Assembly (NCBI GenBank): GCA_026196495.1
Contig: JAPHSY010000024.1
Span: forward strand, 7,604 to 71,603
Length of the DNA: 64,000 nt
DNA from: Magnetovibrio sp.
GTDB lineage: Bacteria; Pseudomonadota; Alphaproteobacteria; Rhodospirillales; Magnetovibrionaceae
Direction: 5' to 3'
Position 1 is the first letter of the stretch; each line of letters starts with the position of its first letter. Position numbers and translations under genes: made by a program. The notes below the pieces were generated by a model that did no database searches, was not told where the DNA came from, and saw only the letters and a program-made list of their open reading frames with translations. Of this stretch, positions 4,317-20,370 are shown piece by piece.

Positions 4317-4500
4317 AAAGCCCTCGCCAATGACAAATGTCAATGTCGAGGGCTTTCCGGGTGGTTCCAGGATAGGTGCGAGCGGACCTCCCCAGGTTTA
4401 CTCGTCGCCCAGAACCTCCGCGACTGTATTCAAAACGCAAAATCAAGGTGAAAAAAGGGCTAGTCGAAGTCCCCTACCCGTTTGGATTTTGCGTACCTAA
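4317..4500 (-). ncRNA. Putative structured leader / sRNA upstream of rpe (unassigned family)
   Basis: Lies downstream of a sigma70-like promoter. Stems cgcaaaatc/gattttgcg (4436-4493), gtcgc/gcgac (4404-4424) and terminator-like aaagccctcg/cgagggcttt (4317-4356). Confidence 0.35.
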
Positions 4501-4511
4501 CGATTGATACT

Positions 4512-4540
4512 TTTGTATTCCGCTTTCCTAATAAAGTCAA
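4512..4540 (-). promoter_or_regulatory. Sigma70-type promoter reading toward rpe
   Basis: Minus strand TTGACT-N17-TACAAA. Confidence 0.55.
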
Positions 4541-4631
4541 TTAAACAAACCTGAAAAATCCATATATTTAAGGGCTTTCAAGCAAATTCCAACCCATTAG
4601 GGTAGCAGCCCACTGCCCATTTAAATGGCCT

Positions 4632-6914
4632 TTACTTGGTCAGTGCCATAAATAACTGGGGTAGTTTTTCTGGAAGCCTCTCTACATTGTCGATGACCGT
4701 GTATTGATTCCCAAAAATGGTGCCAATGTAGTCGTCGGCCTTCTTATCCAAGTTGATGCAGTACGTATAAATCCCATCCCGATCGAGCTCTTGAACCGCT
4801 TTGCGGGTGTCTTCGATCAGGTGTTGCTCATCATCCACGTCAATATCGGACGGTTCACCATCAGTGAGGATCAGCATCAGTTTTTTATCTGATTTACGCT
4901 GCGCTAAAGTGTTTGCGGCGTGACGCATTGCGGCCCCCATGCGGGTCGAGTAACCAGCTTCGACGGCCCCCAAACGCCCTTTCACATCATCGTTCCAGTT
5001 TTCAGAATAACCTTTGATGTGTTGGTAACGCACTTCATGGCGGGTGTTCGATGAAAAACCAGCAATCGCCAATTCATCACCCAGCTTGTCCACAGCCCAG
5101 CCCAACAAAGACACAGCTTCTTGACTGATTTCCAAAATGGTTTGGGAGCTACCTTTGGGAATGTCGTTGATGGATTGCGATAAATCCAATAGCAACATCA
5201 CCGAGATGTCACGGCCATCGTGACGATGGGACATGTTGATGCGCGGGTCCGGTTGGGCACCTGCTTTGAAATCGATTAAGGACCGAATGGCTACGTCCAA
5301 ATCCAGTTCAGTACCCTCTTCTTGATATCGAATCCGCACGTAGTTTTGCGGCTTCAACATATCCAGGATTTGTTTGAGGCGTTTGGCCAAAGCCGCGTGC
5401 TTAGATAGTAAGCCATCGACCACACTGGCAGGGCCCGATGGGTGTAAGCCTTCATACAGGCTGACCCAATCAGGACGGTAGCTTTTGGACTGATAATCCC
5501 ATTCTGGATAATGGCGCGGCGGTAGGCCTTGTTGTTCTTCTTCTTCTTTGGACTGTGCTTCGCGTTTGTTCTCTTCGTACATTTCCTCTTCATCGCCCAA
5601 CTCGTGGTACTTCCACATATGGCGGTTGTCGTCACGGTAATCGACTTCGGTGTCCGCAAAGTAGATGTTTGCCGACTGGTCTTCTTGACGACGGGTGCGG
5701 GCAATAAATGAAATGGCTAGATTGGCGACGTCTTGGGTGGAGTTCTTGTCGCTTTTCATCAATTCATGAAAGCGGTCCACATATTCCAACACGTCCGGGT
5801 TTTCGTATGGATGGTCGGGATCTAGCACAGCATAGGAAAACATCGCCAAACGGTGACGAATGCATGATTCCACCTTTGGGTTGCAATCGTCTTCAATGGG
5901 CTTGGGGTGCAGCGCCTGATAAATATGACGCAAACCGGGGTATTCCTGCATGGTCAGGTATTCGACCCGTGTGTCTTCAAAAATTTCCGCAGCTACACGC
6001 TGAAAGGGGCTGAAGTTGTCGGCAAAAATGGCTGAGGTCCAGCGCCGATGTGCGGCCATGTGGGCCAATAATGCGCGATAACGGTCGGTGCCTTTGACAC
6101 GAATACCGATCGAATGATGTTCGTAGTCGTCATAAACGTCCGGCACGCGCAGTCCAAGCTGATCGAAATACGGCATTGGCTTGCGCATCTCGTCATAACC
6201 CAACGAGTACGGTACGAACTGGGCATGGTGTTCGGACCACAAGCCCTTCATATACATACCCATTTTGCGTTCAACGTCGGCAAACAATGTACCATGGCGT
6301 TCGCGCTGTAAAATTGCTTTCGAATCAGCAGATTGCAGAGAGAAATAATCTTTTTGGCGTTCTGGATGGGTGACATAGTGCTTCACACCATAATCAACCC
6401 AGTTTTTAAGGCCTTCCATAGACAACTGACTGAGCAGATATGGGACATTGTTGAGCATATTTTCTAAGCCAGGGCTCGGAATGGTTTGGTGAAAGCCATG
6501 GGTCGAGCGTGTGGTGTTTTCCATCATCTCGAACACCAGCTCAACATACTGGTCGAACAGTTCTTTCGAACCTAAACGCCGTGCGGCTTCGGCCAGAGTC
6601 TGCAAAAAACCTAAAATGCCTTTGCCGTTGGGGGTGCGTGACATTTTCCACACCGATTGGGCAATTTCTTCGATGACCTCTTCACCCAAACGCTGGGCGA
6701 TTGTGGGCATTTTCTCCAAGAAAACGTGAACGGGGTCATAACCGCGCCCGATCATGCAGATCAGCGACGCGCCTTCCAGCAAATGCTTCACACCTTCAGG
6801 ACTGAGACGCACAACTGCGTCTTCCATACAGCCCTCGAACGCGGTATCCAATTGCTCAAACCCGCAGGTGAGCATTTCGCGCAGTTCGTTCAGTTCGTCT
6901 TGGCTAAGAGCCAT
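4632..6914 (-). CDS. cbbO: RuBisCO activase adaptor CbbO (NorD-like, C-terminal vWA domain)
   Basis: vWA MIDAS DLSQS...LTDGEP, GYSTRMGAAMRHA; directly downstream of cbbQ. Confidence 0.95.
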   Translation of the reverse strand: MALSQDELNELREMLTCGFEQLDTAFEGCMEDAVVRLSPEGVKHLLEGASLICMIGRGYDPVHVFLEKMPTIAQRLGEEVIEEIAQSVWKMSRTPNGKGILGFLQTLAEAARRLGSKELFDQYVELVFEMMENTTRSTHGFHQTIPSPGLENMLNNVPYLLSQLSMEGLKNWVDYGVKHYVTHPERQKDYFSLQSADSKAILQRERHGTLFADVERKMGMYMKGLWSEHHAQFVPYSLGYDEMRKPMPYFDQLGLRVPDVYDDYEHHSIGIRVKGTDRYRALLAHMAAHRRWTSAIFADNFSPFQRVAAEIFEDTRVEYLTMQEYPGLRHIYQALHPKPIEDDCNPKVESCIRHRLAMFSYAVLDPDHPYENPDVLEYVDRFHELMKSDKNSTQDVANLAISFIARTRRQEDQSANIYFADTEVDYRDDNRHMWKYHELGDEEEMYEENKREAQSKEEEEQQGLPPRHYPEWDYQSKSYRPDWVSLYEGLHPSGPASVVDGLLSKHAALAKRLKQILDMLKPQNYVRIRYQEEGTELDLDVAIRSLIDFKAGAQPDPRINMSHRHDGRDISVMLLLDLSQSINDIPKGSSQTILEISQEAVSLLGWAVDKLGDELAIAGFSSNTRHEVRYQHIKGYSENWNDDVKGRLGAVEAGYSTRMGAAMRHAANTLAQRKSDKKLMLILTDGEPSDIDVDDEQHLIEDTRKAVQELDRDGIYTYCINLDKKADDYIGTIFGNQYTVIDNVERLPEKLPQLFMALTK

Positions 6915-6942
6915 ATCGACGGCCCCTTCCTACCCAGTTTAA

Positions 6943-19173: not shown

Positions 19174-19324
19174 TGTAGATCCGATCTTAAAACATTGAGG
19201 GAAATAGCCCCGCCTAGAGAAGCAATGAGGCCAATCCCACCCATTCGGGTTTTGGTACGTCACTATGAAACCCTGTGAGGGGAAAGAAGCAAACACCCGG
19301 GTGGGGAGCGGTCTCGTGTCTTTT

Positions 19325-19346
19325 GGGTGGTATTTACCCTACCCGC
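19325..19346. promoter_or_regulatory. GGGTAGG-type motif upstream of the glpX-prk-tkt-fba operon
   Basis: gggtggtatttaccctacccgc; resembles copies at 4473-4485, 20114-20128, 20171-20181 and 20350-20370. Confidence 0.45.
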
Positions 19347-19408
19347 AAGGACGGGCACACATAAGTACTATCTGTTTTAGATTATTATGATATTGAAATT
19401 ACAGAGTT

Positions 19409-20047
19409 TTAGGCATTTCCACTGGCGTTGAGGTAGCAAGCCACCGCTTGGGCACGATTTTTGACTTCCAGCTTGCCATAAAGGTTTTTGAGGTGAAATT
19501 TAACGGTATTGAGCGAAATGGTGAGATCGCCGGCAATCTGTTGATTGGTCCGACCACGTGCCAACGACGCCAAAAGTTCTTGTTCACGGGCAGTCAAACC
19601 GGAAAATGGATCTGAGCCAGAACGGGACAAGTCCATAAATGGAAAGACCATACGGCCTTCAGATACCGCCAATACGGTTTCCGCCAAAACATTGGATGCA
19701 TCGCACTTGGAACAGAAGCCTGCACCACCAAAACGCATCACTTGGCGCGGAATGTCCGGCGCAGTGTTGCCTGTAAACACAATGATGCGCGGCGGTGTTT
19801 CAGTTTTCTGTAGGGACTGAAGAACGCCTTGGCCATTTAAATACGGCATATTCCAACCAATGATGCCAACATCAAAGCTGAGACGATCTACCGCTTCCAT
19901 AAAGCGTTCACCATCTGCTGCGGTTGCAACTAGATTGAAGCGATCATCTTGGTCAAACATCTGCACGAGTCCAGATAAGATCAATGGTGACTTATCAGCG
20001 ACCACGACCTCTATGGGGTATTTATCTTCTGTATTCACTTCACTCAC
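19409..20047 (-). CDS. NarL/FixJ (LuxR-HTH) family response regulator, atypical receiver
   Basis: REC fold then LTAREQELLASLARGRTNQQIA..L.IS.NTVKFHLKNLYGKL.V.NRAQAV; GTG 20047 has a GAGGAG RBS. Confidence 0.92.
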   Translation of the reverse strand: MSEVNTEDKYPIEVVVADKSPLILSGLVQMFDQDDRFNLVATAADGERFMEAVDRLSFDVGIIGWNMPYLNGQGVLQSLQKTETPPRIIVFTGNTAPDIPRQVMRFGGAGFCSKCDASNVLAETVLAVSEGRMVFPFMDLSRSGSDPFSGLTAREQELLASLARGRTNQQIAGDLTISLNTVKFHLKNLYGKLEVKNRAQAVACYLNASGNA

Positions 20048-20113
20048 GTTTCGCTCCTCGTCTTGTTGAAGAAGCATGACGCCTGCCCCCCTAATCTTTT
20101 CCCCAGGGCACGC

Positions 20114-20370
20114 CCAAACGGGTAGGTATTTTCCTGATTATCCGCTTTGTATTTAAAATGTAAAGACCAATACCTACCCGCAGTGCAGCAATTCGTACAA
20201 GCTACTGAATTAAATTAATTATTATAACAGAAAAACGTAATATAAAGACTACCCAATCGGGCATCGCTGCAGCGCAACATAGCAAAAAGGTATAATTGTT
20301 GGATAACCCACCCACAGATTTTGGTCGATTCTTAACGCTAAACTGGGTCTGGGTAGGTAATTCCCCACCC
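20114..20370. promoter_or_regulatory. Cluster of GGGTAGGTA/TACCTACCC motifs upstream of the LuxR-family regulator
   Basis: ccaaacgggtaggta (20114-20128), tacctacccgc (20171-20181), gggtaggta-at-tccccaccc (20351-20370). Confidence 0.5.

Follow-up and report, generated by a model that had tools for sequence, protein, structure and literature searches.

How are Calvin–Benson–Bassham (CBB) cycle genes controlled in a stretch of DNA in which one short motif, GGGTAGG, recurs in front of several of them? The stretch (64,000 nucleotides of contig JAPHSY010000024.1 of a Magnetovibrio sp., assembly GCA_026196495.1; hereafter the window) carries a CBB cluster at about 3.6–20 kb. Bacterial Calvin-cycle transcription is usually framed around the regulator CbbR, with global systems such as RegBA on top. 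An initial annotation of the window noted the motif upstream of rpe, of the operon glpX-prk-tkt-fba and of an adjacent gene for a LuxR-family regulator. It proposed that these genes for regeneration of ribulose 1,5-bisphosphate (RuBP) form an autoregulated regulon of the neighbouring protein, apart from a CbbR-controlled RuBP carboxylase/oxygenase (RuBisCO). Synteny, conservation of the motif, its match to the operator of the SecR family and conservation of the CbbR boxes all support that hypothesis. We consider it likely, with good confidence, that a SecR-family regulator recognises GGGTAGG-type sites, regulates its own gene and activates the RuBP-regeneration genes, while CbbR drives RuBisCO separately.

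Results and discussion

The motif and its linkage to the regulator gene

All strings quoted in the initial annotation were located in the window. The 13-mer CCAAACGGGTAGG is present exactly upstream of rpe (4473-4485, minus strand) and upstream of the LuxR-family gene (20114-20126, plus strand); tacctacccgc is found at 20171-20181, gggtaggtaattccccaccc at 20351-20370 and gggtggtatttaccctacccgc at 19325-19346, upstream of glpX-prk-tkt-fba. Recurrence of the 13-mer was not accepted as significant on its own: the 64-kb window has 172 canonical 13-mers with two or more occurrences. GGGTAGG is present in eight copies against 3.0 expected, a number reached in none of 100 shuffles. The published 8-mer CCYACCCG, introduced below, has five copies against 2.4 expected (reached in 12 of 100 shuffles), all five in intergenic regions adjoining rpe, glpX and the regulator gene. 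Taken alone, these within-window statistics are weak to modest. Four other matches were considered as sites of the regulon and are taken as chance: GGGTAGG at 6929, in the Shine-Dalgarno region of cbbO and common only to the closest relative (L084); lone GGGTAGG half-sites at 26780, after a small open reading frame (ORF), and at 53225, within another; and a weak palindrome at 33748, in coding DNA.

Comparison between genomes gives a much clearer picture. A profile search of species-level genomes with the regulator yielded 80 loci (numbered with the prefix L; 1.2 Mb in total), the closest from Magnetovibrio species with regulators 88–90% identical to that of the window. Enough downstream sequence to judge synteny is available in 72 Rhodospirillales loci. 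In 69 of these, (glpX)-prk-tkt-fba lies directly downstream of the regulator on the same strand, often trailed by cbbM-cbbQ-cbbO and/or rpe, and the regulators are 58–90% identical. The LuxR-family gene is thus tied to the RuBP-regeneration genes, as the initial annotation had claimed. In an unbiased count GGGTAGG/CCTACCC ranked first among the 7-mers within 400 bp ahead of the regulator (70 of the 80 loci) and second in the spacer between regulator and cbb genes. Its density is 3.5 per kb upstream of the regulator and 3.2 per kb in the regulator-cbb spacer; in the rest of the 80 loci (about 1.15 Mb), which served as background, it is 0.052 per kb. The motif is therefore far from background frequency, being some 65-fold denser in the two spacers flanking the regulator than in the remaining sequence.

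Paired half-sites lie 10–11, 52–54 or 63–66 bp apart, corresponding to about 1, 5 or 6 helical turns, and occur in either orientation; this spacing and orientation fit protein-binding DNA and not an RNA element. An explanation at the RNA level was rejected, as the half-sites point both ways with respect to the genes and show conservation of sequence, not covariation. The operator can be described as CCYACCC/GGGTRGG arranged in 7-4-7 or 7-(5-7)-7 inverted repeats, with additional half-sites. The cross-genome comparison is decisive against chance: the repeated GGGTAGG is real and conserved, and the pattern of an autoregulated regulon, with the motif kept at the promoters of both the regulator and the cbb genes, is borne out.

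The regulator is a CBB-linked variant of the SecR family

The regulator gene starts with GTG at 20047, preceded by GAGGAG-N6, and this start is conserved in three relatives (L001, L002, L003). The protein of 212 residues (222 in the full ORF) combines an N-terminal receiver-like domain with a C-terminal LuxR/GerE helix-turn-helix (HTH). Full-length alignments were obtained with NarL, ChrA and DesR as well as SecR2, and its homologues carry Pfam PF00072 and PF00196. It is an atypical member of the NarL/FixJ family and not a conventional response regulator, since it has neither the phospho-acceptor Asp nor an adjacent kinase. Gly64 (G74 of the 222-residue ORF) aligns with D59 of NarL, and Ala takes the place of NarL D13, a member of the acidic pair. 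The Gly is shared by all 15 CBB-linked proteins compared. No kinase gene adjoins the regulator or occurs among the genes annotated at 1-24000. NarL and NarP of enterobacteria are the best NCBIfam and PDB sequence relatives and have a similar recognition helix, but the scores fall far under the family cut-offs (NarP, 103 bits against 343; NarL, 91 against 250), and of the canonical NarL/NarP features the phospho-acceptor Asp is missing and the acidic pocket incomplete. NarL requires phosphorylation of D59 by NarX or NarQ, and its heptamer TACYYMT resembles TACCCGT within CCTACCCGTT. Unlike NarL and NarP, the window regulator has no nitrate-related neighbours as obvious targets.

A closer match is found elsewhere. 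In Aminobacter sp. NyZ550, SecR1 and SecR2 have been described as NarL/FixJ regulators of an atypical kind, with neither a phospho-acceptor Asp nor a kinase (Xu, Li and Zhou, Commun Biol, March 2026; PMC13199381). Both are dimeric and unphosphorylated in vitro, and they activate the serine-cycle promoters Psga and Pppc as well as PsecR1, the last amounting to positive autoregulation (PMC13199381). Their binding consensus, 5'-CCYACCCG-3' with the inverted repeat CGGGTRGG, was obtained by electrophoretic mobility shift assay (EMSA) and DNase I footprinting of GGCGGCCTACCCGAACGGGTGGGTAA; the footprinted SecR1 site, CCTACCCGAACGGGTGGG, has the 7-4-7 form and lies in PsecR1 at -124 to -98, and the footprints at Psga and Pppc span 63–65 nt (PMC13199381). 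The SecR1 mutations N183A, K198A and R213A abolish binding, and among surveyed homologues (>30% identity, >50% coverage) the phospho-acceptor Asp is replaced by Gly, Ala, Ser, Glu or Asn in 78% (PMC13199381).

SecR2, a protein of 215 residues, is encoded on plasmid pMET1 of strain NyZ550 (L081:8983-9630), downstream of ppc-glyA. The window regulator shares 42% identity with it over 196 residues (E 2e-54) and the same percentage with ScyR of Paracoccus aminovorans. The recognition helices of the window regulator and SecR2 are nearly identical (NTVKFHLKNLYGKL and NTVKYHLKNLYDKL, respectively). Residues N168, K183 and R198 are invariant in the window regulator, three CBB-linked proteins, SecR2 and ScyR; they share the 15+15 spacing of N183, K198 and R213 in SecR1, and the correspondence relies on this spacing and on SecR2. 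The phospho-acceptor position is Gly in the window regulator and Ala in SecR2, while ScyR keeps Asp. As a control, the sga-scyR spacer of P. aminovorans was inspected and contains CGGGCGGG-N6-CCTACCCG. The proposal that the motif is the target of the LuxR-family protein thus gains from experiment on a homologue, since SecR, at 42% identity, binds this very sequence in EMSA and DNase I footprints (PMC13199381).

The window regulator shares with the SecR proteins and their homologues the NarL/FixJ receiver-like domain and LuxR HTH, the size (about 210–235 residues), overall similarity, loss of the phospho-acceptor Asp (except in ScyR), lack of an adjacent kinase gene and the DNA-contact residues. 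It also shares the operator, with CCYACCCG/CGGGTRGG placed as inverted repeats in its own promoter and in promoters of a neighbouring carbon-assimilation pathway. The long multi-site pathway promoter is a further likeness, the 63–65 nt SecR footprints comparing with a conserved cbb array of about 60 bp. What sets it apart is the genomic context: in place of linkage to serine-cycle genes (sga, ppc, mtkAB, hpr, glyA) there are CBB genes in the 69 linked loci, and no serine-cycle genes were noticed in the examined region of the window. The hosts are autotrophic Rhodospirillales, including magnetotactic genera, whereas the SecR hosts are methylotrophic Hyphomicrobiales or Rhodobacterales. Among themselves the CBB-linked proteins are 58–90% identical, a close-knit group with about 40% identity to SecR2 and ScyR, and the second modelled positive residue of the SecR1 pocket, R81, is Asn, Asp or Glu in them. 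Some sites here also lie downstream of predicted transcription starts, in contrast to -124 to -98 for the SecR1 site. Since the difference in linkage concerns the pathway and not the fold or operator, the protein is to be seen as a variant and not as a plain SecR member; the comparison supports its assignment as a CBB-linked variant of the SecR family.

We note that C112 (212-residue numbering), in the receiver-like motif GAGFCSK, is invariant in the 15 CBB-linked regulators and has an equivalent in SecR2 (GFCYQ) but not in ScyR (GFVSR). This cysteine could be a redox-sensing residue.

Putative operator arrays at the regulator and glpX promoters

The coordinates of the sites described below are collected in Table 1. 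At the regulator's own promoter, a sigma-70-like candidate with 10 of 12 consensus matches is bracketed by two GGGTAGG half-sites in convergent orientation, with 53 bp from start to start. The downstream one is part of a 7-4-7 operator that contains the 13-mer and shares its form with the footprinted SecR1 site; CCYACCC-N4-GGG recurs ahead of the regulator in 22 loci. The spacing of 52–54 bp between the upstream half-site and the downstream site is common to L001, L002, L003 and L006, and a TTTAC-type -35 recurs between the two half-sites in the same four loci. The more distal palindrome is a perfect match to GGGTRGG-N6-CCYACCC, and additional distal sites are observed upstream of the regulator in L001 and L003.

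At the glpX operon the arrangement is more rigid. GGGTGTT is present on the gene strand in 56 of the 72 regulator-cbb spacers and was used as the anchor for their alignment, which needed no gaps in 52 distinct loci. The resulting array reads CCYACCC-N4-GGGTRGG-N6-CCCACCC-AAAGA-N10-CCCCCC-N4-GGGTGTT-N21-(-10-like nATGAT), and the palindromic operator in the centre of the window's array corresponds to its GGGTRGG-N6-CCCACCC block, ungapped in all 52. GGGTGTT keeps a fixed distance both from the upstream half-sites and from the -10-like nATGAT; GGGTG therefore abuts a weak -35 (TTnnnn). Ahead of glpX a promoter scanner called no consensus sigma-70 site, in keeping with a need for an activator there. 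One more site is located in the predicted glpX 5' leader, and a similar CCC-N4-5-GGGTGGGG sits at the equivalent place in L001, L002 and L003.

The rpe spacer and a candidate leader RNA

Eight close relatives (L083-L090; 89–97% identity) were obtained by scanning metagenomes with the rpe protein; all have the order cbbQ-cbbO-spacer-rpe, so that the gene order cbbQ-cbbO of the window is kept. L084-L088 have GGGTAGG at the matching position, and L083 has a copy with one mismatch there. In each of L084-L088 (about 4–7.6 kb) this position-matched copy is the only one, apart from the copy in the cbbO ribosome-binding region of L084. A second operator of 7-4-7 form, with two mismatches, lies further upstream; CTACCC-N4-GGGTTGG is conserved there in L083 and L085-L087, with one mismatch in L084. 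Between the two operators is a promoter-like block that is conserved in L083-L087. The consensus promoter scanner called nothing in the rpe spacer, so this block is proposed from conservation.

Between the promoter-like site and the start codon of rpe we located an element of about 100 nt (core GACGAGTAAACCTGGGGAGGTCCGCTCG) that is near-identical in nine sequences, the window and the eight metagenome loci. It is predicted to fold into a long stem topped by an apical hairpin, with a terminator-like hairpin after it; RNAalifold gives 35 pairs, 7 with compensatory changes. No Rfam family was matched, either with permissive E-values on the region or with gathering cut-offs on the whole window. A covariance model of the element, run on the window and 160 of the 162 loci (1.7 Mb), found no copies beyond the nine used in building it; within that set it matches solely upstream of rpe in the Magnetovibrio lineage. 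Only about 30 nt separate the end of the hairpin from the rpe ATG in L083 and L087, which leaves no room for another promoter; rpe must therefore be read through the element, a candidate cis-acting leader on that account. It is a candidate for a new leader or riboswitch-like attenuator of rpe, or for a small RNA. In L088 (about 3290-3480), some nine tandem copies of a 16-nt unit, gcattgagtgtcttgt, are placed between the leader hairpin and rpe.

The claim of the initial annotation that rpe is a target of the motif is thereby kept as probable and refined: the site is conserved and adjoins a promoter-like element, but a leader RNA with a terminator intervenes. The upstream site is probably real and probably acts on a unit of promoter, leader and rpe, not directly at an rpe core promoter. 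One may suppose instead that the copy at 4473-4485 does not control rpe, being a chance or relic half-site or driving only a small RNA that ends at the 4316-4360 hairpin. The intervening hairpin would fit this, as would the weak partner half-site, the lack of the site in L089 and L090 and the fact that identity of the 13-mer alone is not significant. We regard it as doubtful, although it is the alternative to which we give most weight: the position of GGGTAGG is kept in the window and L084-L088, the second operator and the promoter-like block are co-conserved with it, and the geometry in L083 and L087 has rpe read through from the leader promoter.

Proposed mechanism and alternatives

In the proposed mechanism the regulator would act as a phosphorylation-independent dimer of SecR type and would recognise CCYACCC(G)/(C)GGGTRGG half-sites at three places. 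Sites bracketing the core promoter of its own gene would provide autoregulation. A rigid array of three or four half-sites, ending against the weak -35 of the glpX-prk-tkt-fba promoter, would most likely serve activation in the manner of a class II activator. Two sites around the promoter-like element upstream of rpe would form the third place. In this lineage cbbM-cbbQ-cbbO would be driven separately by the divergent LysR-type CbbR. The amount of regulator, set at its own promoter, and not its phosphorylation, would then determine the capacity for RuBP regeneration. We infer binding by the window regulator, the positions of the transcription starts and the activating effect from sequence. Activation is preferred because SecR activates, no consensus promoter precedes glpX and a half-site abuts the -35.

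Several observations weigh against this mechanism. Several sites are at positions more typical of repression: at predicted +4 to +21 of the regulator's own promoter, at about +10 to +25 in the predicted glpX leader and at about +26 of the predicted rpe-leader promoter. The second halves of the rpe-upstream sites are weak, and GGGTAGG is missing in two of the eight close relatives. Three of the 72 informative loci (L053, L065, L078) have the regulator but no cbb genes downstream; a Pfam scan found no CBB enzyme among their ten candidate ORFs, and these loci therefore stay unlinked. Identity to the characterised SecR2 is only 42%. Finally, AAAGA, directly after CCCACCC, and the CCCCCC run are invariant at fixed spacing and lie outside the SecR consensus; within the block at 19265-19306, conserved in the 52 loci, they may contact RNA polymerase or a second factor.

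The sites downstream of predicted starts leave room for a repressor or dual role, and the same protein and sites could in principle have repression as their main effect, the protein blocking the regulator, cbb and rpe promoters from positions on or shortly past their transcription starts until its level or activity falls. The two sites bracketing the regulator's core promoter, about 5 helical turns apart, would also suit repression by DNA looping. We think this unlikely. SecR1 and SecR2, the relatives that have been characterised, activate transcription and regulate themselves positively. At the cbb promoter no consensus -35 can be recognised, and the best-conserved half-site lies against the -35 position, an arrangement like that of class II activation. 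All transcription starts used here are predictions.

It is also conceivable that the motif is bound by a different, unlinked transcription factor and that the link between the LuxR-type gene and the cbb genes is one of synteny only. The AAAGA and C-run of the conserved cbb promoter block, which are foreign to the SecR consensus, are what such a view would draw on. It is very improbable, given that the motif matches an operator footprinted with a homologue, the two proteins having almost the same recognition helix, and that it occurs ahead of the regulator gene itself in 70 of 80 loci, the signature of autoregulation. That the repeats are functionless chance matches in G+C-balanced intergenic DNA, as the weak within-window figures (172 recurring 13-mers; five copies of CCYACCCG against 2.4) might suggest, can be dismissed in view of the 65-fold enrichment across 80 loci, the fixed geometry in 52 distinct promoters and the identical operator found by experiment for the homologue.

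CbbR and the control of RuBisCO

The RuBisCO genes of the window carry different promoter elements from those of the putative SecR-type regulon. The CbbR box that the initial annotation placed at 9421 is present as ATAAG-N5-CTTAT (9421-9435), together with a second box in the cbbR-cbbM spacer, and both are conserved in L005, L008, L012 and L016. No GGGTAGG was found in the cbbR-cbbM spacers of the window or of these four loci. T-N11-A boxes and a divergent LysR gene accompany cbbM only; glpX, the regulator gene and rpe carry GGGTAGG sites instead. The proposed division, with RuBisCO under CbbR and the regeneration genes under the LuxR-type protein, thus holds for the Magnetovibrio lineage but not as a general rule. 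It is specific to that lineage because related genomes have RuBisCO within a regulator-headed operon or preceded by the motif: in L021-L029 cbbM-cbbQ-cbbO-rpe lies inside the operon headed by the regulator, and in L060, L061 and L063 GGGTAGG sites precede cbbM with no neighbouring cbbR. Outside this lineage the LuxR-type regulator probably covers RuBisCO too. L060, L061 and L063 are freshwater magnetospirillum-type relatives in which no cbbR was detected within the loci; two or three GGGTAGG/CCTACCC copies sit in their rpe-cbbM spacers (L060, 17192-17233; L061, 16497-16565; L063, 16461-16509).

CbbR and the window regulator resemble each other in that both are dedicated regulators encoded beside CBB genes and in the two-site layout of their promoters, with a proximal site touching the -35. 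They differ in family and fold (LysR against NarL/FixJ) and in operator (T-N11-A against CCYACCC). CbbR is divergently transcribed and metabolite-responsive, whereas the window regulator is co-directional with its putative target operon, and CbbR is here confined to cbbM-cbbQ-cbbO. A second point of comparison is the atypical two-component system CbbRRS, by which Rhodopseudomonas palustris modulates cbb expression; it consists of a hybrid kinase and two response regulators without DNA-binding domains, acting through CbbR. It too is a receiver-domain signalling layer other than CbbR within a cbb cluster. The window regulator differs in having a DNA-binding domain and in lacking a kinase and a phospho-acceptor.

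Implications

The family and its operator are already published (PMC13199381); what is new here is the occurrence of this regulator type and operator at a different assimilation pathway and in a different host group. The main text of that paper mentions the CBB cycle once, in passing, in its introduction (PMC13199381). Our literature search found no LuxR/NarL-type regulator of cbb genes described in Rhodospirillaceae or Magnetospirillum, and the Varunaivibrio genome paper does not mention the regulator.

If the mechanism is correct, a dedicated, CbbR-independent regulator of RuBP regeneration would constitute a second, phosphorylation-free layer of local control, conserved over dozens of Rhodospirillales species. 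It would also tie the Calvin cycle to a regulator family and operator shown in 2026 to gate the serine cycle, and the sharing of both by the two cycles suggests a common ancestral switch for one-carbon (C1) assimilation. A wider proposal, for and against which we see about equal grounds, is that SecR-type regulators without the phospho-acceptor Asp are a general alphaproteobacterial switch of C1 assimilation. A distinct, closely conserved Rhodospirillales clade that includes magnetotactic bacteria would then drive the Calvin cycle with the same operator, the regulator controlling the regeneration genes alone where CbbR is present and the whole cbb operon where it is not, and Magnetovibrio would add a riboswitch-like rpe leader. 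In practical terms, the work offers a defined, if predicted, pair of protein and operator with which CBB expression could be engineered or monitored. It leads one to expect autotrophy phenotypes when this single gene is knocked out in tractable magnetospirilla, and it points to a candidate new cis-regulatory RNA upstream of rpe.

Features of the window

Table 1 Genes, putative operators, promoters and leader RNA of the CBB region, by position in the window
Feature	Position	Strand	Remarks
rpe	3595-4254	-	Ribulose-phosphate 3-epimerase; TIGR01163, 307 bits
rpe leader RNA, structured	4304-4428	-	Terminator-like hairpin 4316-4360; between promoter-like site and rpe start codon
Copy of the 13-mer, CCTACCCGTTTGG (plus strand)	4473-4485		Strong half-site, weak partner half
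Promoter-like site TTGACT-N17-TACAAA	4512-4540	-	Between the two rpe-upstream operators; conserved in L083-L087
7-4-7 operator CCAACCC-ATTA-GGGTAGC (plus strand)	4589-4606		GCTACCC-TAAT-GGGTTGG on the rpe strand; 2 mismatches
CbbR unit (cbbR; cbbM, cbbQ, cbbO)	4632-10569	both	
cbbO	4632-6914	-	Named from size and position after cbbQ; without NCBIfam match
cbbQ	6943-7758	-	In CbbR unit with cbbM and cbbO
cbbM	7857-9245	-	Form II RuBisCO; NCBIfam, 889 bits
LysR-type (CbbR) boxes	9390-9435		ATAAG-N5-CTTAT (T-N11-A) 9421-9435; ATAA...TTAT 9390-9407
cbbR	9496-10569	+	CbbR-like LysR regulator; divergent from cbbM; NCBIfam
Putative target operon glpX-prk-tkt-fba	14108-19173	-	Four genes; NCBIfam equivalogs
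fba	14108-15172	-	
tkt	15227-17206	-	
prk	17245-18180	-	Phosphoribulokinase
glpX	18193-19173	-	Class II fructose-1,6-bisphosphatase/sedoheptulose-1,7-bisphosphatase (FBPase/SBPase); start placed at ATG 19173
Downstream site ACCC-GAAT-GGGTGGG	19236-19250		Predicted glpX 5' leader
Predicted cbb operon promoter	19265-19293	-	-35 TTTGCT 19288-19293, -10 TTTCAT 19265-19270
CCCCACCC-GGGTGTT element	19292-19306	-	Abuts predicted -35
Palindromic operator GGGTGG-TATTTA-CCCTACCCGC (plus strand)	19325-19346		Regulator-glpX spacer, centre of array
LuxR-family regulator gene	19409-20047	-	SecR-like, 212 residues
7-4-7 operator CCTACCC-GTTT-GGGCGTG (gene strand)	20109-20126		Contains 13-mer; just after predicted transcription start
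Sigma-70-like promoter candidate TTTACA-N16-GATAAT	20137-20164	-	10/12 consensus matches
Half-site CGGGTAGG (gene strand)	20173-20180		8 nt upstream of predicted -35
Distal palindrome GGGTAGG-TAATT-CCCCACCC	20351-20370		About 220 bp upstream of predicted regulator transcription start

The prk of the window matches the cyanobacterial/plant-type model NF005655 with 361 bits, against only 45 bits for the proteobacterial model NF011997. A cyanobacterial-type prk together with a GlpX-type FBPase/SBPase is an uncommon enzyme pairing for alphaproteobacteria; it is kept across the 80 loci.

The interval between cbbR and fba (10739-13856) contains an ORF of 514 residues (plus strand) without a family match and an HD-GYP-type, response-regulator-like protein of 496 residues (minus strand); both also flank cbb genes in L001 and L002. 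The regulator gene is preceded, in the same orientation (20479-24001, minus strand), by genes for a sulfide:quinone reductase, a NapC/NirT-like tetrahaem cytochrome and a c-type cytochrome of 459 residues. This order before the regulator is retained in L001-L003 and L005, and a gene resembling sulfide:quinone reductase is found near the regulator in many other loci.

Two Rfam matches only, in the whole window, are above the gathering score: a SAM-II (alphaproteobacterial S-adenosylmethionine) riboswitch at 39402-39481 (minus strand, 46.5 bits) and a tRNA gene at 28638-28711 (minus strand).

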